Assembly: GCA_021163645.1 (NCBI GenBank)
Contig: JAGGTN010000017.1
Location: 1-39,428, forward strand
DNA from: Candidatus Micrarchaeota archaeon
GTDB taxonomy: Archaea > Micrarchaeota > Micrarchaeia > Anstonellales > JAGGTN01
DNA length: 39,428 bases
Reading direction: 5' to 3'
Each line of letters opens with the position of its first letter. Position 1 is the stretch's first letter. The notes beneath the pieces were generated by a model. It was not told where the DNA came from. It made no database searches and worked only from the letters and a program-made list of their open reading frames with translations. Of this stretch, positions 29,958 through 37,446 are shown piece by piece. The position numbers and the translations under genes were made by a program.

Positions 29958-30290
29958 AATCAATCCCTAATCAACATCATTCATTTCATCATTAATCATC
30001 AAACCAACTTAACCAAATCAACCAACCTAAGCCAAACCAAGCCCAAATAAAAAATCAAATAAACATCATCAACCAAATCCAAACCTGAACACCAATCCAA
30101 GACCCAAACAATCCAAGCCCAACATCATCAAACAAAAAATAAAAAACAATCCCAACAAACCAACCAAACCAAATCAATCCCATCCAACCCCAAATAAAAA
30201 ATCAAATAAACATCATCAAACAAAAAACCAAAAACCAACCCCAACCAACCCAACCAAAAACCAACTAATCCAACCAAAAATCAATCATAC
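29958..30290. repeat. A/C-rich mosaic repeat tract D (longest)
   Basis: Same modules as the other tracts; internal exact 31-nt repeat 30042-30072 = 30189-30219. Confidence 0.85.
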
Positions 30291-30397: not shown

Positions 30398-30550
30398 TCA
30401 CTTCCTCCTAAAAAATCTTTCAAAAATACTAGAAGGTTTATTCATACGTTTGAGTACATAAGTCCTATGAATATCAGGATTCAATATAAGAAAACTCAAG
30501 ACCCTTTGTTTCTTTTTAGTTGATTTACGTTTATCATACATCTCATTCAT
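30398..30550 (-). CDS. Candidate small basic protein (50 aa)
   Basis: MNEMYDKRKSTKKKQRVLSFLILNPDIHRTYVLKRMNKPSSIFERFFRRK; GGGTG RBS-like element upstream. Confidence 0.4.
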   Translation of the reverse strand: MNEMYDKRKSTKKKQRVLSFLILNPDIHRTYVLKRMNKPSSIFERFFRRK

Positions 30551-30650: not shown

Positions 30651-31436
30651 TTATTCTTTACTTATATATCCTTCTTTAAGAAGCATATCTAACCCTTCCT
30701 CTACCCTTGCCGGAGTAATATTATATATATTCGCAAATTCACTTACATTTATCTTTCCCCTATGGTTCTTCAACCATATCAATAATTCTTCTTTAAGCGT
30801 CTCGTTGGTCAGGCCCTCAAGTTTTCTTATACGTAAATTGAGTTTATCTATTTGTCTCTCATAATCTGCTACAAGTTTATTATTCTTATCCAAAAGATTA
30901 TATAATTCATCTCTCTCCTTCTTTGTATTTGTATATTGTTCTTTAAGAAGTTCATACTTATTAGATAGAATTGCATAATTATCTGTAAATAGTTCTGAAA
31001 CAACAGACAATGATTCAAGAACTCTTCTCATAATGCTTTTCCAGTCAATATCATATTCAGATAATATTAACAACACCTTCAATGTCAAAGCAGATACATC
31101 TACTTTGCGTTTATTCATATTAATCTCTTTAGGGATTGAATATTCTACGTCAATACCGTCTTTGCGAAATATATACTTTGTATACAGATAAGGTTTGCCT
31201 TTGATATCCTCACGCTCGACGTTCATCGCAATTATCTCATTCTTCTTCACATCAATATTCGAGAATCCTAACTGTGAAATCTCTTTCATCACATGACTAA
31301 GAGTAGTTTTAAGTTTGGCTTTCACTGTAAAATTCTTAATAATATCCTTCCTTTCTTTTTGTCTTGCTTCTTTTGTTCCATTATCTTTCTCATTCTCTTT
31401 TCCATCTTTCTTTTTCCTTATCCGTATTCTTCTCAC
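30651..31436 (-). CDS. Coiled-coil protein with C-terminal wHTH; last gene of the Ced/T4SS-like cluster
   Basis: Directly abuts the ATPase stop; GKINVSEFANIYNITPARVEEGLDMLLKEGYI. Confidence 0.75.
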   Translation of the reverse strand: MRRIRIRKKKDGKENEKDNGTKEARQKERKDIIKNFTVKAKLKTTLSHVMKEISQLGFSNIDVKKNEIIAMNVEREDIKGKPYLYTKYIFRKDGIDVEYSIPKEINMNKRKVDVSALTLKVLLILSEYDIDWKSIMRRVLESLSVVSELFTDNYAILSNKYELLKEQYTNTKKERDELYNLLDKNNKLVADYERQIDKLNLRIRKLEGLTNETLKEELLIWLKNHRGKINVSEFANIYNITPARVEEGLDMLLKEGYISKE

Positions 31437-32957
31437 TTAATCAACCTCCAACTTAGATATCTTATCAGATTCCACACCCATCTTAACTCTCTGTAATTCA
31501 GAGAACAAACTAGTAATATCAATGTCTCTTATCCCCAACTCTCTCAGAAATGTTATCACAACTGACCGTGCATACCCAAACTTTTCAAGGTCGCTGATTA
31601 TCTCAATAATATTCAATCGATTATCATTCTTCTCAAACTTCATAGATATCTGAGCAACCTGCTTATCAGTCAACCCAAATTCTAACAGTTTACGCCTAAA
31701 TGATTCCTTTTCAAATTCCAAATCCATCTTATCACCAACCAAAATATGTATTGTTATCAAAGGCTCCTCACCATCTATCCTACTCAACAAGAAGATATTT
31801 GAATATGATGTGCGCTTATAATATGCTTGATAGACAGCGCATTCACCTACACCAAACCGTCCGATATGCTCAGCTATGAAATCAGAATAATTCAGCGACG
31901 ACCGGACATAATCCTTAAACTCCTTAAAGAGCAATCGCATAACAAACATTGTGCCAACATTAGAGAATATCGCTTTATTAACATCGGTTGGATTTTGGCT
32001 CGCAACTATCAAACTGAACTGATACTTCCTACCTTCCCGAACAATCGTAATCAAATCACTACGTTCATCCTTAGCAATCTTCCATGCTTCATCAGCAACG
32101 ATAAATAGCTTGATTCCTTTACCAGGATGCCAACCTTCATCTCTCATCATTTCCTTGATAAATTGAAGGATTGTCAGGCCTGCTAGACTGCGTATTTGTT
32201 CGGAAGGTAAGCCATGAAGGTCAAGACACACCAATCCACTTGATATCAACTTATGCACTTTTAGTGTTGATTTCTTAGCAAAATAATCATTACCTGGGAT
32301 TATAAATTTTGACAATACTGATATTGCTTCATTGATCTCATCTCTCTTCGCCTCACTCTTCTCTCTTCTCTTTATCTCATTTAGATTTTTGATAACATCC
32401 TTTAATAGAGGTGGCTCTCTTTTCTGATCCTTCTTAACAAGATCAAACCCTTTTTCCTTATAAGCATTCTCTATCGCATCCTCAATCGCACGCTTCTGTG
32501 ACGCTGTATGACCCAAATCAGTTAATATTTCAAGTGCAGTCATTATCTGTTTCGCTCGATCAAGAGGTTTCATCCCCGCGAGGTCCAAGAGATTGATATA
32601 ATCACCTTTACCCAATGATACTACCTTACCACCAACCTGTTTCACCCATTTATTATACTCTCCTACCCAATCTAATATCAATGCATTGGTGTTCCAAACA
32701 AGATTAGCACGCGTTAGGAATGTCTTAACTAGATATGACTTACCTGCTCCTGTAACACCAACAACTGATATGTGGGGATTGATCAAATTTTTAAAATTCC
32801 AATAATATGGAACATTTAATATGCTCGTCCTAGCAAGATAGACTGCTTCGGTGGGATTACTCATTAATAATTCTTTGTTGGGTTCTGGTGGATGCACAAA
32901 GAAACATCTAGCCCCTAACTCACTGCTTAATACCTTTTGTGGACGAAGTATTCCCAT
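31437..32957 (-). CDS. VirB4/HerA-FtsK family ATPase (CedB-like)
   Basis: NPHISVVGVTGAGKS, ILDWVGEY, IVADEAW, REGRKY..SLIVASQNP.D. Confidence 0.88.
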   Translation of the reverse strand: MGILRPQKVLSSELGARCFFVHPPEPNKELLMSNPTEAVYLARTSILNVPYYWNFKNLINPHISVVGVTGAGKSYLVKTFLTRANLVWNTNALILDWVGEYNKWVKQVGGKVVSLGKGDYINLLDLAGMKPLDRAKQIMTALEILTDLGHTASQKRAIEDAIENAYKEKGFDLVKKDQKREPPLLKDVIKNLNEIKRREKSEAKRDEINEAISVLSKFIIPGNDYFAKKSTLKVHKLISSGLVCLDLHGLPSEQIRSLAGLTILQFIKEMMRDEGWHPGKGIKLFIVADEAWKIAKDERSDLITIVREGRKYQFSLIVASQNPTDVNKAIFSNVGTMFVMRLLFKEFKDYVRSSLNYSDFIAEHIGRFGVGECAVYQAYYKRTSYSNIFLLSRIDGEEPLITIHILVGDKMDLEFEKESFRRKLLEFGLTDKQVAQISMKFEKNDNRLNIIEIISDLEKFGYARSVVITFLRELGIRDIDITSLFSELQRVKMGVESDKISKLEVD

Positions 32958-32966
32958 GATGGCACC

Positions 32967-33758
32967 TCACAACGCAATATTACTAAATTCTGTTTCAGAT
33001 GCAGGGATAAATGTTTCCCATTCAAAAATTCTTTTCATATCCTCACCTATTAACTGATGAACCTCAACGTTCAACGCGTTACCAACAACTGATTTAACCT
33101 CATTACCCTGAGATTTTGCTCTAATGATTGCTTCCTCTTTTGTCGTTCCTTTAGCCGTTGTCATCATATAACAAACAACCTCCATAGGTTTCTCACCTGA
33201 TGTTAATCGTTCGAGTTGTCTGTTCCACATGGTGATCTCACGATTTAATCGCATCACATCTGCCTCCTTTGTCGAATCATTGGACGCTACCAACTGCGCC
33301 CTCTTAGTTTCACACCAACTCCTCTTCGCCTTTATCTCATCAATCGCATCGCTCAGATTGATGTTTCTGACAAGGACCGAAAACTTAACAATCGATTTCA
33401 CAGAACTGATCGCTCTCTCAAAATATTCAGCAAACAGCCCTCGCTGTTCAGTATTCATTTCAGTTATTGATTCAGGGATTATAGCAACATAAAAAACACT
33501 TGCATAATAATCCTGACCTGATTTCTTAACTATGATGTCCTGGCTAGGCGGTATTTCATACTGTCCAAATCGTTCTGATAACCCAATCATCTTAAATACA
33601 GAAGGCATCACCACATAGCCATACTTCCACAAGATAAATGTCAAGAACAATAAAACCGATGTAATGGATATAGCAACAACATTAAATGTAAATATGGCAA
33701 GCAATAATGCTATCCCACCTCCAGCTAATGTAATAAATGTAATCGTTTTTCCATTCAT
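32967..33758 (-). CDS. Membrane protein (2 N-terminal TM + coiled coil), putative VirB3/VirB4-N-like partner
   Basis: Two TM helices then a soluble alpha/beta domain with a coiled-coil insert; 9 bp upstream of the ATPase. Confidence 0.6.
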   Translation of the reverse strand: MNGKTITFITLAGGGIALLLAIFTFNVVAISITSVLLFLTFILWKYGYVVMPSVFKMIGLSERFGQYEIPPSQDIIVKKSGQDYYASVFYVAIIPESITEMNTEQRGLFAEYFERAISSVKSIVKFSVLVRNINLSDAIDEIKAKRSWCETKRAQLVASNDSTKEADVMRLNREITMWNRQLERLTSGEKPMEVVCYMMTTAKGTTKEEAIIRAKSQGNEVKSVVGNALNVEVHQLIGEDMKRIFEWETFIPASETEFSNIAL

Positions 33759-33828
33759 TAAATCACCTTATTTTTCAAACAATCCTATATTAAACAAACA
33801 TATTAATCTCATCACCTACTCAAAAGTA

Positions 33829-34887
33829 CTATATTATTTCAATTGGAGTAGTTATAAATTCGGCTCCAAGCACCTTTGTCAATTGGATAATCGTGACTAT
33901 TGTTATGAATAAGGATATAATCGGCAATATCACAGACATATAAAATAATGAACCTTCTACATTTGCAGCTGCACCAGTTAGGTGATATGTTGATTCTACC
34001 AGGTCTTTACGGTATTGTGTCATTGATGTCATGTTAGAAAAACTGCTTACACTTCCAGGAGTGCTCAAGTCATAGAATGTTAAATTCTCATAATATTTTG
34101 ATGTAAAATTCGTTATGTCATTGATCGATGAGTATAATTCATCAACATCCGACCGCATAGCAACGACATTTATAAGAGGATAAATTATATACAAACCTAT
34201 CGCAATAGCTATCAACAACCCGCCTACCTTTCTTGTAACGAAAAAGGAGCGGAATATTAAACCTAACGGCAGAAAGACAGTCAAAGCTGTTAAGTATGAA
34301 AACCTTAACAATAAAGCATTAGCAGTGAGTAAGGATTGGTACAATGTTGTCCTGTTAATAGTTGATGATAATGCTTTTGAAATATGAGAAAGACCGCTGA
34401 ACGGTTTATAATCAACAATTCCTGTATGTAATTCAATATCAGATGCAAATGATAATGTATCTATTGATTTTGATAATTCATCAGTGAATGTAAAACTACC
34501 TGTTTCAACATTCTGTATCAAACATTCTGAATAAGATGCCAATGTGAGATTTTCATTGGAGTATGATGAAGAAATGGGCCTGTACCATCCAAGCATATCA
34601 GATCCTGATAAGCACGTGGCTGTAGCATTGGTTGGCAGAAGATCGTAAGAAACAGTGGTAAGCATGGCAACAATCAATCCAAATGCGCCAAGAAGAGCAG
34701 CATTTATAAAGGATTGTAGAATTTCCTCTTTCCCAAAATTCTTCATTTTTTTTGAATTAAGGGCAAAACCCAACCCCAACACAATACCTGCAAATACTAT
34801 TGATATGCCCACAATACTTAGTGCTATCTCAAATCCACTTCCACTTTCCCCTATCTTAAAACTATCTATGATCTCAAATATTCCCAT
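33829..34887 (-). CDS. CedA/VirB6-like polytopic membrane protein
   Basis: About 5 TM; LPLGLIFRSFFVTRKVGGLLIAIAIGLYIIYPL resembles the CedA-type helical hairpin. Confidence 0.6.
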   Translation of the reverse strand: MGIFEIIDSFKIGESGSGFEIALSIVGISIVFAGIVLGLGFALNSKKMKNFGKEEILQSFINAALLGAFGLIVAMLTTVSYDLLPTNATATCLSGSDMLGWYRPISSSYSNENLTLASYSECLIQNVETGSFTFTDELSKSIDTLSFASDIELHTGIVDYKPFSGLSHISKALSSTINRTTLYQSLLTANALLLRFSYLTALTVFLPLGLIFRSFFVTRKVGGLLIAIAIGLYIIYPLINVVAMRSDVDELYSSINDITNFTSKYYENLTFYDLSTPGSVSSFSNMTSMTQYRKDLVESTYHLTGAAANVEGSLFYMSVILPIISLFITIVTIIQLTKVLGAEFITTPIEII

Positions 34888-34939
34888 GTCAAACCTCCAC
34901 TATCAAAAGCTAAAATGAAACGAAAATTAAATGAAGTAA

Positions 34940-35317
34940 TTACCCACCAACAGGTACGTTATCACTTGAAGGACCTACTTGTTGTAATGATTCATACGCT
35001 GATTCCCTTATCATAGTTGAAGCGCCGATTATTGCAGCCATCACAACACCTCCAATCAGCAAACCCACTGCTATACTAACCCATTTTCCTCTACTCTCTG
35101 AGGGCATCGTCTGTGAAATACCAAATACGATTGCTGCTAGTATGATTAGAACTAATGATAACCCAAGCCCAACGTTAGTGAGTGTGGTGCCCAAACTCGT
35201 GATCTTAGATTCTAGCTTAACAGTTGCATAGAATACTCCTGTTAGAATAAGCATTACTAATGGGAGATACATGCTTATCATGTGTAACCTTAATAACAAA
35301 AGATTTCTATTTATCAT
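34940..35317 (-). CDS. VirB2/TrbC-like pilin candidate
   Basis: Signal-like helix plus two hydrophobic helices joined by a short charged loop (PSESRGKW). Confidence 0.55.
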   Translation of the reverse strand: MINRNLLLLRLHMISMYLPLVMLILTGVFYATVKLESKITSLGTTLTNVGLGLSLVLIILAAIVFGISQTMPSESRGKWVSIAVGLLIGGVVMAAIIGASTMIRESAYESLQQVGPSSDNVPVGG

Positions 35318-35451
35318 GATACATCACAATATAATAATAATAAAAAGTTTTATAAATGTTTATTTAAGGAAAAAGAAATAAAAAGATAAATAAGTATTTA
35401 CAAATACTCTGATTCTCCGAAATTTTTTGACTCTTAACTCAATAACTTAAT

Positions 35452-35542
35452 TAGTTGGTTGGTTTTGGGTTGGATGGGATTGGTGATTGGTGATTGGGTT
35501 GGCTTATATTGGTTTTTATTGGGTTGGTTTTGGGTTGGGCTG
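35452..35542. repeat. G/T-rich mosaic repeat tract E
   Basis: Exact 31-nt match to 14731-14761; CCAATCACCAATCCCATCC block shared (inverted) with tract C. Confidence 0.85.
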
Positions 35543-35755: not shown

Positions 35756-36016
35756 AGCCTCAGGAGGGATTTTTGGGCCACTTTTCTTTTTTAGCGCAGG
35801 TTTTTGGATGTCGCCTTCGCCTGCGACACCGAAAGAAAAGTGCGAACCCTTGACCTCGTCCTTTTTTTGAACTTTTCTTTTTTTAGCGCAGGTTTTTGGA
35901 TGTCGCCTTCGCCTGCGACACCGAAAGAAAAGTACATACCAAGGACGCGCTCTACCATTCCAGGCCTTTCTGAAAACTATCTGATTTCAGTCTAAGGCAG
36001 ACTGAGCTACTGAGGC
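35756..36016 (-). tRNA. tRNA-Thr(GGT) with three introns: 42 nt at 17/17a (35958-35999), 74 nt at 37/38 (35863-35936), 71 nt at 56/57 (35773-35843)
   Basis: Spliced 74-nt GCCTCAG TA GCTC AGTCTGGTA GAGC G CGTCC TTGGTAA GGACG AGGTC AAGGG TTCAAAT CCCTC CTGAGGC T; central helices TCAG/CTGG and GGGT/GCCC; the anticodon motif is relaxed. Confidence 0.92.
35780..35933. repeat. Direct repeat of a 62/63-nt structured element (35780-35841 and 35871-35933) forming the bodies of two tRNA-Thr introns
   Basis: Identical except for one T in a homopolymer run. Confidence 0.95.
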
Positions 36017-36444: not shown

Positions 36445-37410
36445 TTAATCCCTTACTCCCTCACTAGTGATTTTGAATATGACTTCACCATCAGGCAGAT
36501 GTGGTGAATCAACCAAGCGAGCCACCCTTTTTTCATTCTTGCTTTTTCTAAGATAAACACGGAATGTAGCCGCATGACCTAATACATGCCCACCAATAGG
36601 AGTTGTCGGATCACCAAAAAGTATTCCTGGATTATCCATTACCTGATTAGTAACCACTACCGCCAGGTTATATTTATCTGACAATTGCTGTAATGTATGA
36701 ATATGCTTGTTAAGTTTCTGCTGACGTTCGCTCAATGCGCCCCTTCCAATATAATCTGCCCTAAACTGTGATGTTAATGAATCAACAATCAATAATTTAA
36801 TATTATGGTCCTTAATGAAATCTTCTGCTTTCTCGACCAATACTATCTGATGGTCAGAATTTATGGCTTTTGCTACATGTATTTTTTTGAGTGCTTCATT
36901 TGGGTCAAGACCCAATGCCTCAGCCATACCTGCAATCCTTTCTGGCCTAAACGAACTTTCAGTATCTATGTACAAAGCTTCACCATTAAGACCGCCCTTA
37001 TCAACAGGCAATTGCACATTCACACTCAACTGAAAACATATTTGAGATTTTGATGAGCCAAATTTACCATAGAATTCTGTTATCGACATTGTTTCTATTC
37101 CTCCTCCCAGCAATTCATCAAGATGTTTTGAGCCGGTAGTGAGCATACCTATTTCTTTACGCCTTTCAAGAATCTGGTCAGCAGATTCAAAAGACATATC
37201 TACTCCTCCTTTTGCGCTCTCTATAATCTTCTTAGCTGCATCGACGGACACATCAGCAATCTCTGTCAATTCATAAGGCGATGCTGCAGCTATCTTCTGC
37301 ACGTCATAACCTGCTGCTTTTAACTTATCTGCCTTTGCTGGACCAACACCAGCAAGGTCTTCTAAATCTACAATTATCTTTGCTCTCTCTTTAACCTTTT
37401 TCTTAATCAT
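36445..37410 (-). CDS. radA: DNA repair and recombination protein RadA (start at ATG 37410 after GGTGA)
   Basis: N-terminal Hh[14 protein letters not shown] motif, [38 protein letters not shown]. Confidence 0.97.
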
Positions 37411-37446
37411 AAAATCACCATTTCCAAATTCAATTTTATTAAGCAA

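Follow-up and report, generated by a model that had tools for sequence, protein, structure and literature searches.

A 39,428-nucleotide stretch of Micrarchaeota DNA (the window) carries an operon, fixed in the chromosome, for what is probably a compact envelope machine of Ced/Ted type derived from a T4SS. Its five ORFs, O1-O2-O3-O4-O5 in transcription order, all lie on the minus strand between 30651 and 35317 and form a single operon, with intergenic gaps of 52, 70, 9 and 0 nt. The preliminary description had named these five co-oriented genes at the same coordinates; a sixth small ORF has to be added to them (Table 1). It had also proposed a Ced/T4SS-like machine with lineage-specific accessory proteins, and the CedB/VirB4-type ATPase, the probable pilin-family O1 and the Micrarchaeota-only O5 bear this out. 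A literature search found no published description of this Micrarchaeota system.

Table 1. Coordinates of the operon genes and of sites and domains within and next to them.
Feature	Position	Strand	Description and basis
Candidate promoter, TATA-box-like TTTATAAA	35349..35356	-	~35 nt upstream of the O1 ATG; read from sequence
O1	34940-35317	-	Small membrane protein, 125 aa; ORF; VirB2/TrbC-like pilin family via orthologues
O2	33829-34887	-	Polytopic membrane protein with very long helices, 352 aa; ORF; AF2 model
O3	32967-33758	-	Putative anchor and VirB4 N-terminal domain, 263 aa; ORF
O3 residues 1-58	33585..33758	-	Two TM helices, VirB3-like membrane anchor; AF2 helices 3-24 and 27-58; hydrophobicity count 2 TM
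O3 residues 62-249	33012..33575	-	Alpha/beta domain with inserted helical hairpin; matches VirB4 N-terminal domain
O3/O4 junction	32958..32969	-	TGA, 9-nt spacer with GAGGTG Shine-Dalgarno-like box, ATG of O4; sequence
O4	31437-32957	-	FtsK/HerA-superfamily P-loop ATPase, VirB4/CedB type, 506 aa; ORF; Pfam, NCBIfam
O4 Walker A	32736-32759	-	Sequence
O4 Walker B (D-E)	32088-32093	-	Sequence
O4 C-terminal helical domain	31440..31739	-	~100 aa, three L-x-x-h-G-h type repeats; alignment of 23 sequences
O5	30651-31436	-	N-terminal domain, coiled coil and C-terminal winged helix (about 30663-30830), 261 aa; ORF, Pfam, profile
O6	30398-30550	-	Basic protein, 50 aa, 100 nt downstream of O5; small conserved ORF

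Within the same study, contigs assembled separately from two further samples match positions 30934-35528 and 30705-35335 with 0 differences. In a strain sequenced in a different study and ~98% identical, 33 of the 39 substitutions listed (39 of 46) fall within O1-O5. Since 26 of these 33 are synonymous (one of them stop to stop) and the other 7 are conservative non-synonymous changes, O1-O5 are all coding and under purifying selection. As had been stated, the flanks are housekeeping genes, identified by Pfam as PheRS beta, PheRS alpha, acylphosphatase and RadA; RadA lies 1.1 kb upstream in the window and is not kept beside the operon in other loci. The TATA-box-like TTTATAAA may be the operon promoter, a weak call because the region is A+T-rich.

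A three-intron tRNA-Thr gene is located just upstream of O1 (440 nt), and low-complexity CCAACC-type tracts border the operon in inverted orientation. Together with the PHROG matches of O4, among them a family of unknown function (7.6e-20) and a terminase-like one (2e-12), these features would suit what is left of a conjugative element or provirus that integrated beside the tRNA gene. Such an origin is hardly probable at all: the CCAACC tracts are found at 56 places in the genome, the G+C content of the operon does not deviate from that of the remainder of the window, and no integrase-like neighbour was found, nor, in the genome searches given below, a relaxase or coupling protein. The operon also lies beside PheRS in relatives from three other families, and the gene tree follows taxonomy. 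The earlier statement that att sites are absent holds insofar as no att-like repeat was found, the end of the tRNA-Thr gene not being repeated across the cluster, but a tRNA gene does adjoin the cluster. The absence of a relaxase, also noted earlier, agrees with the lack of any match to PF03432 in the same genome (88.6% complete), this being the sole relaxase family in the search. A search for the VirD4/TraG coupling protein (PF02534) at E<=0.01, with controls positive in 6 of 14 genomes, likewise found nothing in this genome. Pfam searches of the operon did not detect VirB5, 7, 8, 9, 10 or 11.

O4 is predicted from its motifs to be a catalytically intact ATPase, and tests support this; Walker A, Walker B and a REGRKY box are invariant across 22 ATPase sequences. 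Pfam matches are to DUF87 (E 1.2e-18) and AAA_10 (E 5.7e-14). The NCBIfam scores are 78 bits for CedB, 72 for CD1110 VirB4-like, 68 for Mbov VirB4, 55 for TraC, 51 for CedD and 47 for HerA, every one of them far below its curated equivalog cut-off (78.2 against 700 bits for CedB, NF041017; 46-47 against 800-970 bits for the HerA equivalog models, in partial alignment). CedB is the best NCBIfam model for all 22 ATPases (best E 1.7e-29, compared with 4.1e-25 for CD1110 VirB4-like and 3.7e-18 for HerA). The assignment to the VirB4/HerA type thus stands, with the CedB/VirB4 models outscoring those of HerA. In tblastn against plasmids (2247 records, 2066 classed as conjugative) the top-ranking rows carry VirB4-like ATPase annotations, at ~25% identity, a likeness to bacterial conjugative T4SS that extends to the TrbC/VirB2 match of an O1 orthologue.

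O3 had been described as a two-TM coiled-coil protein. That description gives way to another, for which there is moderate support: O3 is the detached membrane anchor and N-terminal domain of a VirB4/CedB-like motor, and O4 is the motor half. The CedB HMM matches O3 over model positions 12-219 of 590 (E 0.003, 16.2 bits) and runs collinearly from O3 into O4, reaching 77.1 bits when read across both. The AF2 model of O3 (pLDDT 81.4) has TrwK/VirB4 in 8 of its 10 best Foldseek rows (prob up to 0.98, E 5.7e-3). In the VIA comparison TrwK is again the best row, with Z 10.4, rmsd 3.9 and 143 aligned residues (model 65-249, TrwK 221-373); the remaining TrwK chains reach just Z 7.4-8.0, and VirB4 is absent among the best 50 matches of a wide unbiased fold search. 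At the window's junction O3 and O4 share one frame, and the junction sequence is unchanged in independent contigs. O3 and the ATPase gene adjoin in 36 loci; their reading frames differ in 25 of these and agree in 11, which shows a true split rather than readthrough or a sequencing error.

The P-loop core that O4 has in common with HerA raises the alternative of a lineage-specific, membrane-anchored HerA/FtsK-type housekeeping complex, active in segregation, division or envelope biogenesis, in which any T4SS likeness of O1 and O2 would be convergent. When PDB sequences are ranked against the ATPase profile, HerA-type chains do come first (1.9e-17) and the VirB4 chain 4ag5 follows (5.4e-13), but the former match over partial coverage and the latter over full coverage; the HerA matches take in part of the core, while those to VirB4 and CedB run end to end. 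The genome, at 88.6% completeness, has no separate HerA gene, the HerA model matching just the two operon ATPases described below. The partner at the N-terminal side is, unlike in HerA, a membrane protein whose fold matches the VirB4 N-terminal domain, and we know of no HerA with a VirB4-type N-domain. HerA, a helicase of DNA-end resection, is found with NurA; the neighbours of O4 are membrane proteins, O5, PheRS and the tRNA, with no nucleases, and NurA, Mre11 and Rad50 are absent from the neighbourhood in 40 loci, where the families were clustered without names, a weak point of that comparison. On balance we regard a HerA/FtsK-type complex as improbable.

A further point against such a complex comes from the family of O1, which had been called pilin-like. 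Our criterion for a pilin was a small protein with two hydrophobic helices and a match to PF04956 or PF18895. O1 has a ~44-aa N-terminal hydrophobic leader followed by two hydrophobic helices, linked by a conserved P-x-E-x-R-G-K-W loop; the three synonymous changes between strains at codons 11, 12 and 20 favour the long start. Pfam finds no pilin match for the O1 of the window itself. It aligns with four orthologues at 30-40% identity, and at E<=5 TrbC is matched by 3 of these 5 family members and T4SS_pilin by 3 of 5. One orthologue scores 28.0 bits against the Pfam cut-off of 27.9 (TrbC/VirB2, E 2.6e-6; T4SS_pilin 4.4e-5), the only one of the five to reach it and by a margin of 0.1 bit. Through its orthologues, then, O1 is supported as a probable member of the VirB2/TrbC-like pilin family, in keeping with the earlier call.

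O2 is a candidate VirB6/CedA-like platform; its predicted fold is consistent with that role but does not prove it. TrwI/VirB6 is the best natural near-full-length fold match of the AF2 model (pLDDT 84.2, pTM 0.76), with Z 9.2, 245 aligned residues and rmsd 6.1, and a wide fold search gave Z 8.3 over 242 residues; the tool warns that values of 8.3-9.2 can come from common helical arrangements. Foldseek assigns VirB6 a prob of 0.96, yet an E of 0.14. VirB6 is the only near-full-length match, but scores as high also come from designed repeats and from partial coiled coils, and fold matches no better than the noise among helical proteins would suit a HerA/FtsK-type complex. No TrbL (PF04610)/VirB6 sequence signal was seen in 9 or in 135 members of the O2 family, one of the 135 matching TraG_N at E 0.0017, and PDB profile searches with O2 returned no VirB6 chain. 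Of the earlier VirB6-like assignment, the fold likeness thus remains, with a weak Z and no sequence counterpart. Tests support O2 as a large Micrarchaeota family, with the signature LPxGxxxRxFxxTRxxGGxLIA, that always accompanies this motor; in this genome the family has expanded to 13 paralogs.

A synteny survey across Micrarchaeota, which the preliminary description had called for, found the cluster conserved. All 41 genomes of the order that were surveyed have the ATPase, and O2 (178 of 201) and O5 (175 of 201) show the same family-level pattern across the genomes of the phylum. The order holds two ancient paralogous operons, the compact type A of the window and type B, which in this genome has the order O3-ATPase-F5-O5-F3 and is located on another contig. 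The gene tree separates clade A (16 rows) from clade B (24 rows), with aLRT 100 for each, and both follow taxonomy; both operons are vertically inherited, and the system as a whole is chromosomal, vertically inherited and non-mobile. Near-universal, vertical and duplicated genes look like core functions, which is again a point for a housekeeping complex. In 10 of 16 type A loci, O2 is the gene immediately before O3. Orders outside this one have one large operon that includes tandem O2 paralogs; these immediately precede O3 in 6 of 9 single-copy loci, and O1-like genes take that place in 2 more. The paralogous operon pair of this order and the single large operon with tandem O2 paralogs elsewhere are new here.

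The remaining parts of the operon are putatively cytoplasmic. The C-terminal tail of O4 also occurs as a free-standing gene of 98-104 aa in some relatives and has no consistent Pfam family. In a PDB profile search it matches Topoisomerase V best (residues 786-850, E 1.2e-5) and an EF-hand protein next (8e-5); the tail may possibly be an (HhH)2-like DNA-binding repeat, and this weak helix-hairpin-helix likeness is also new here. O5 starts with GTG immediately after the O4 stop and adjoins the ATPase in 38 of 40 loci. An Atlas search with it returned archaeal clusters only, all without names, and we consider it a Micrarchaeota-specific partner. Pfam matches of O5 are weak (EAP30 7.2e-4, MarR 0.011), and its profile matches a winged-helix chain, 2xvc_A ('ESCRT-III'), at E 7.2e-5. 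This archaeal ESCRT-III match could also be claimed for a HerA/FtsK-type housekeeping complex, and the likeness of the winged helix to protein-binding ESCRT-type domains equals its likeness to DNA-binding ones. O6 has no Pfam match; in 8 loci including the window a same-strand ORF of 45-74 aa with the pattern Y/F-x-F-x-h-h-K ... S-F/Y-x-I follows O5, and the type A operon likely has O6 as its sixth gene.

The closest parallel to the T4SS-derived machine favoured here is the Ced system of Sulfolobales and Desulfurococcales (CedA, CedA1, CedA2, CedB, CedD, CedE), described as chromosomal and built from a VirB2-like/VirB6-like/VirB4-like triad (PMC9905601). Like the operon here, it is non-mobile and relaxase-free as described, and it spreads the VirB4 N-terminal domain over more than one polypeptide, CedB and CedD being reported as homologous to different parts of that domain (PMC11868833). 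O4 is no CedB orthologue by the score given above, and the split here parts the N-domain from the ATPase domain whereas Ced has two paralogous ATPases. We found no Ced counterpart of O5, O6, the HhH-like tail, F5 or F3, and this genome has an O2 family of 13 paralogs, with two paralogous machines per genome in the order. DNA import and, for Ced, induction by DNA damage such as UV are traits of the Ced/Ted kind. The Ted system of Thermoproteales (TedA, TedB, TedC), compared by its published description, is likewise a chromosomal triad, and the hydrophobic leader of O1 recalls the cleaved N-terminal signal sequence that TedC appears to have (PMC9905601). The R388 Trw system (TrwL/VirB2, TrwI/VirB6, TrwM/VirB3, TrwK/VirB4) supplied the best fold matches of O3 and O2. 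Bacterial conjugative T4SS differ from the Micrarchaeota system in that its motor is split, its locus is chromosomal and vertical, and no VirD4 or relaxase was found. The Rvh T4SS of Rickettsiales retains the full VirB/D4 set and has multiplied, tandem, strongly diverged VirB6 paralogs. Host dependence, a small genome and tandem diverged VirB6-like paralogs are common to both, but Rickettsiales belong to another domain of life and Rvh shows no detectable sequence relation.

The function suggested earlier, DNA uptake or host contact, stays a hypothesis here, as does DNA export. In the proposed mechanism O2 would form a membrane platform or channel and O3 would dock an O4 hexamer beneath it. ATP hydrolysis would then power the building of a filament or stalk from O1 and the movement of a macromolecule through the envelope, with the cytoplasmic extras (the HhH-like O4 tail, O5 and O6) handling the cargo. 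As in Ced and Ted, this cargo may be DNA, moved without relaxase or coupling protein; among the candidates it is our tentative first choice, at somewhat less than an even chance, and the Topoisomerase V match of the O4 tail to the C-terminal repeats of that protein provides a possible link to DNA.

The same T4SS-like hardware could instead serve host contact or the exchange of proteins, lipids or metabolites, as a symbiosis conduit or adhesion filament. Genomes of the phylum are reduced and nearly all of them encode the machine, and in family f6, the closest type A relatives, giant proteins of 955-1689 aa with few TM segments stand beside O3 in place of O1 and O2. Type B and ancestral-looking operons end in a 2-TM protein of ~800-870 aa, sometimes in one of ~1500 aa, and in nanohaloarchaea an action on hosts has been proposed for giant surface proteins that are fused to VirB4-like ATPases or lie next to them (PMC10266531). 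The protein-binding likeness of the O5 winged helix fits here as well. Against this, the nearest characterised archaeal relatives by HMM score, CedB and CedD, are reported to import DNA (PMC11868833), the ATPase tail weakly matches a DNA-binding repeat protein, and no effector-like genes are linked to the operon in the window. Such a role seems rather unlikely, though it is the most serious of the alternatives.

A broader proposal, unlikely enough that we offer it as speculation, is that T4SS-like machines of this kind give macromolecules (DNA, nucleotides) a physical route from host archaea into Micrarchaeota and perhaps other DPANN, and that the two paralogous machines divide the work. For example, the pilus-bearing compact type A might serve for reaching or importing, and type B, which would have a ring of six VirB6-like paralogs together with large surface proteins, might serve for docking. 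If this were true, the split-VirB4 apparatus would be the core organelle of the symbiosis.

The five co-oriented ORFs of the preliminary description were found at exactly the same coordinates, all on the minus strand. They encode a pilin-like protein (O1), a polytopic VirB6-like candidate (O2), a candidate VirB4-like N-terminal half (O3), an ATPase (O4) and a coiled-coil/winged-helix protein (O5). The gaps between them, from O1 to O5, measure 52, 70, 9 and 0 nt, an operon-like spacing. The O3/O4 junction consists of the TGA stop, a GAGGTG box and then the O4 start codon ATG, and the TAA of O4 abuts the GTG of O5. Positions 30934-35528 and 30705-35335 were recovered with 0 differences in contigs from two other samples of the same study. 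A strain of about 98% identity, from a different study, has 39 listed substitutions (7 more are not shown); 33 of those listed fall inside the five ORFs, as 26 synonymous changes and 7 conservative replacements, one synonymous change converting the O4 stop from TAA to TGA. Because the contigs reproduce the region and the strain substitutions are mostly synonymous, all five genes are real and under purifying selection. Seven other loci have a look-alike of the small sixth ORF, O6, immediately behind O5. Between O6 and PheRS alpha, within a low-complexity tract, there is also an ORF of 49 aa that has two hydrophobic segments and may be a non-gene.

The G+C of the operon is unremarkable within the window. 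Pfam matches bore out the housekeeping character of the flanks, which carry PheRS beta and alpha, two methyltransferases, an acylphosphatase and RadA. The gene for RadA (Rad51 family, E 1.9e-90) is separated from the operon by 1.1 kb on the upstream side, past tRNA and acylphosphatase genes; its position beside the operon is probably a coincidence, since this neighbourhood is not kept in other loci.

Location of features in the window and elsewhere in the same genome (G000)
Feature	Location	Strand	Size or description
O1	window 34940-35317	minus	125 aa
O2	window 33829-34887	minus	352 aa
O3	window 32967-33758	minus	263 aa
O4	window 31437-32957	minus	506 aa
O5	window 30651-31436	minus	261 aa
O6	window 30398-30550	minus	50 aa, basic
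49-aa ORF	window 30128-30277	minus	
RadA	window 36445-37446	minus	
tRNA-Thr	window, about 35756-36016	minus	
Type B operon	contig C8 16569-21623		O3-like 270 aa, ATPase 522 aa, zinc-ribbon-like 151 aa, O5-like 256 aa, large 2-TM protein
Six-paralog O2 array	contig C23 2884-10846	minus	beside housekeeping genes and large single-TM proteins
Six-paralog O2 array	contig C37 7582-14809	minus	beside housekeeping genes and large single-TM proteins
O1-like genes	contig C5 2638-5723 and contig C4 3984-4400		three genes in all

O4 matches the Pfam families DUF87 (1.2e-18) and AAA_10 (5.7e-14). Its best NCBIfam model is CedB, with 78 bits in a single stretch over model positions 249-563 of 590, followed by two VirB4-like conjugation ATPases (72 and 68 bits), TraC (55), CedD (51) and HerA (47), every one of these scores being far under the curated cut-off. 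The same order of models was obtained with 22 members of the ATPase family (best E 1.7e-29 for CedB and 3.7e-18 for HerA), and the ATPase alignment shows no variation in Walker A, Walker B or a REGRKY box. A tblastn search of plasmids with O4 returned 2247 records, of which 2066 are classed as conjugative, at about 25% identity; the top rows are annotated as VirB4-like ATPases. A repair-type HerA would be the alternative, and in the profile search of PDB sequences HerA-type chains came first (1.9e-17), with the VirB4 chain 4ag5 behind (5.4e-13). We counted this ranking against a VirB4/CedB-type assignment; the HerA-type matches span only about 110-190 positions, while the single VirB4 match extends from position 59 to position 325.

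O3 had been described as a 2-TM coiled-coil protein; its match to the CedB model and its predicted VirB4-like fold set aside the reading that it is an independent one. The CedB model matches O3 over model positions 12-219 (E 0.003) and 3 of 22 O3 family members (best E 4.2e-4); on the genome it runs collinearly from O3 through the TGA into O4 (positions 148-563). In the AF2 model of O3 (pLDDT 81.4), two membrane helices at the N-terminus precede an alpha/beta domain into which a hairpin is inserted. TrwK/VirB4 of R388 occupies 8 of the 10 top rows in Foldseek, with probabilities of up to 0.98 and E 5.7e-3, no row reaching E<=1e-3. It is also the top row in VIA (Z 10.4, rmsd 3.9 over 143 residues), with model residues 65-249 placed on 221-373 of TrwK, in the N-terminal domain; other TrwK chains reach Z 7.4-8.0, and the remaining high rows span only a 59-residue hairpin. 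As VirB4 is absent from the top 50 matches listed in a Foldseek-independent wide fold search, where helical hairpins fill the listing, the modelled fold is assigned to the VirB4 N-terminal domain type with moderate confidence only. O3 and O4 are in the same frame, and readthrough or recoding of the TGA between them was considered. It was rejected, since 25 of 36 adjacent O3-ATPase pairs, including the paralogous pair of the same genome, are in differing frames, which also indicates that the split is genuine. Longer forms in which O3 and the ATPase are fused were looked for and not found, which is weak evidence.

The last ~100 residues of O4 contain three helix-loop-helix-like repeats. The best profile match of this tail is Topoisomerase V 786-850 (E 1.2e-5), a region which we take to consist of tandem (HhH)2 DNA-binding repeats, and the next is an EF-hand protein (8e-5). 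Pfam gave no consistent family for the tail and an Atlas search only scores below 0.8; judged by its sequence, the tail is possibly HhH-like. A free-standing gene for a ~100-aa ATPase C-terminal domain directly follows the ATPase gene in loci L031, L034, L051, L056, L057 and L063. O5 begins with an N-terminal domain, continues as a coiled coil and ends in a winged helix. Its Pfam matches, to EAP30 and MarR, are weak; its profile matches the chain 2xvc_A ('ESCRT-III') at 7.2e-5, and an Atlas search returned unnamed archaeal clusters only.

O2 has no sequence match in Pfam or the PDB, and every protein homologous to it is unnamed and from Micrarchaeota. AF2 gave a good model of O2 (pLDDT 84.2, pTM 0.76), made up of very long helices. 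Foldseek returned no row at E<=1e-3, with TrwI/VirB6 of R388 highest in probability (0.96) and TM-score. VIA placed model residues 11-338 on chain residues 17-273 of TrwI (Z 9.2, 245 residues), and the wide fold search ranked TrwI fourth (Z 8.3, 242 aligned), behind three partial coiled-coil matches of 107-160 residues, although with helical proteins Z values of this size may be non-specific. No VirB6/TrbL match emerged when alignments of 9 and of 135 members were searched as profiles against PDB and Pfam; one member of the larger alignment matches TraG_N (0.0017). The family is large (2840 clusters at E<=1e-3 in an exhaustive representative search), and among its top 150 close members no bridge to named families was found. 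These model comparisons suggest that O2 may be VirB6-like. The genome of the window contains 13 members of the family, namely O2 and two six-gene arrays; these paralogs are 15-26% identical and have one signature helix in common.

O1 is 30-40% identical to four orthologues of ~80 aa, with which it has two hydrophobic helices and a conserved loop in common. One orthologue scores over the Pfam cut-off for TrbC/VirB2 (28.0 vs 27.9 bits, E 2.6e-6) and matches T4SS_pilin at 4.4e-5. At E<=5 each of these two Pfam models matches 3 of the 5 family members, the window copy matching neither. The window copy has an additional N-terminal hydrophobic leader, and this long form is favoured because the leader carries three synonymous strain changes and a TATA-like box lies 35 nt upstream of the ATG. 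An N-terminal relationship of the CedA1/CedA type is described in PMC9905601; when this pattern was checked by aligning the O1 and O2 families with hhalign, nothing was found (probability 1.9%). On contig C5 the further O1-like (pilin-like) genes adjoin four small proteins, each with one N-terminal hydrophobic segment, which by eye resemble archaeal type IV pilin precursors.

A synteny survey across Micrarchaeota showed the cluster to be conserved. All 41 genomes of the order, including all 29 of high quality, carry the ATPase, mostly in 2-5 copies. We fetched 40 loci which, with the window and the second locus of its genome, gave 40 ATPase neighbourhoods; O5 adjoins the ATPase in 38 of these 40. 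A quick ML tree has two clades with aLRT 100, A (16 rows) and B (24 rows), and both track family labels. The type A order, that of the compact operon of the window, is O1-O2-O3-ATPase-O5(-O6), with O2 adjacent in 10 of 16 loci and O1 called in 5; two relatives have giant proteins instead of O1 and O2, and the remaining loci are cut at contig ends or different. At L016 and L017 (genomes G021 and G005), of the family whose ATPase is 61-62% identical to that of the window, the O1/O2 positions upstream of O3 are taken by giant proteins (1486-1689 aa and 955 aa or more) with no Pfam match. The paralogous type B operon has the order O3-ATPase-F5-O5-F3, in which F5, zinc-ribbon-like and with 2 TM segments, weakly matches PrgI (E 0.0023) and F3 is a protein of ~850 aa with 2 TM segments. 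In the genome of the window the ATPase of this operon is 49% identical to O4, and the contig ends within the gene for its large 2-TM protein; the operon has gyrase and glycosyltransferase genes as neighbours.

Of 201 genomes sampled from the phylum, among them the unpublished G060 and G205, 178 have O2 and 175 have O5, the same families being without both. O5 is mostly present in two copies in the window's order and in one in other orders, from which nine single-copy loci were fetched. Directly upstream, 6 of these 9 loci have 3-5 or more tandem O2 paralogs, and O1-like genes occur there in 2. Two tandem O3 genes (7 of 9) precede the ATPase, followed by a free tail copy (3 of 9), F5, O5 and F3. 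This layout looks like the undivided arrangement. The tandem O3-like pairs ahead of the ATPase are those of L056, L057 and L060-L064, in other orders of the class, where the N-terminal half of the motor is thus itself duplicated.

As the preliminary description had proposed, no relaxase is apparent: PF03432 is unmatched in the 88.6%-complete genome of the window. The coupling protein PF02534 was likewise not found there, and the HerA model matches only the two ATPases themselves. ARAGORN and Rfam reported no RNA genes on the raw window, a false negative for an intron-rich tRNA whose matching acceptor ends were located by eye. When two non-canonical inserts were removed by coordinate (4312 insert-removal combinations were tried), 628 of the 634 ARAGORN calls were tRNA-Thr(GGT) with a canonical intron of 74 nt. 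The tRNA-Thr(GGU) gene has three inserts, in the D-loop, at the canonical anticodon position (74 nt) and in the T-loop; two of the three (35782-35848 and 35874-35940) form a direct repeat of 67 nt whose copies are 93% alike. The ORFs 35791-35958 and 35804-35995 that overlie it are probably spurious. CCAACC/GGTTGG-type low-complexity tracts flank the operon in inverted orientation (29993-30266 and 35451-35538), and assemblies of other samples break at such tracts. At a minimum length of 45 nt, 56 of them occur in the 895-kb genome. No repeat of the tRNA end was found across the cluster, in keeping with the reported lack of att sites. Integration at the tRNA was rejected on this ground and because the flanking tracts occur genome-wide; together with the conserved PheRS-side position, these observations argue against an integrated element.

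The preliminary description had proposed a Ced/T4SS-like machine, and its anatomy stands once O3 is read as part of the motor and not as a separate protein. We consider it fairly probable that this anatomy corresponds to a Ced/Ted-like machine derived from a T4SS, in which the VirB4 motor is naturally split; its cargo and direction of transport, like the VirB6 assignment of O2, are matters that we infer. Ced and Ted are conjugation hardware that archaea domesticated for DNA import, treated for Crenarchaeota only in PMC9905601, whose main text makes no mention of DPANN or Micrarchaeota. PMC10266531 describes VirB4-like domains in nanohaloarchaeal giant proteins. A search of the openly accessible literature found no published description of the system in Micrarchaeota. 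The system would bear on how DPANN archaea with sub-megabase genomes acquire DNA, nucleotides, lipids and proteins from partner cells. It is distinctive in its naturally split motor, its expanded family of candidate VirB6-like proteins (13 genes in a genome of 895 kb) and its unique cytoplasmic partners, and it offers concrete targets for study in a putative O1 filament, a putative O2 ring and a putative O3-O4-O5 complex. A near-universal, vertically inherited and duplicated T4SS-like system would extend the principle of domesticated conjugation to the symbiotic phylum Micrarchaeota.
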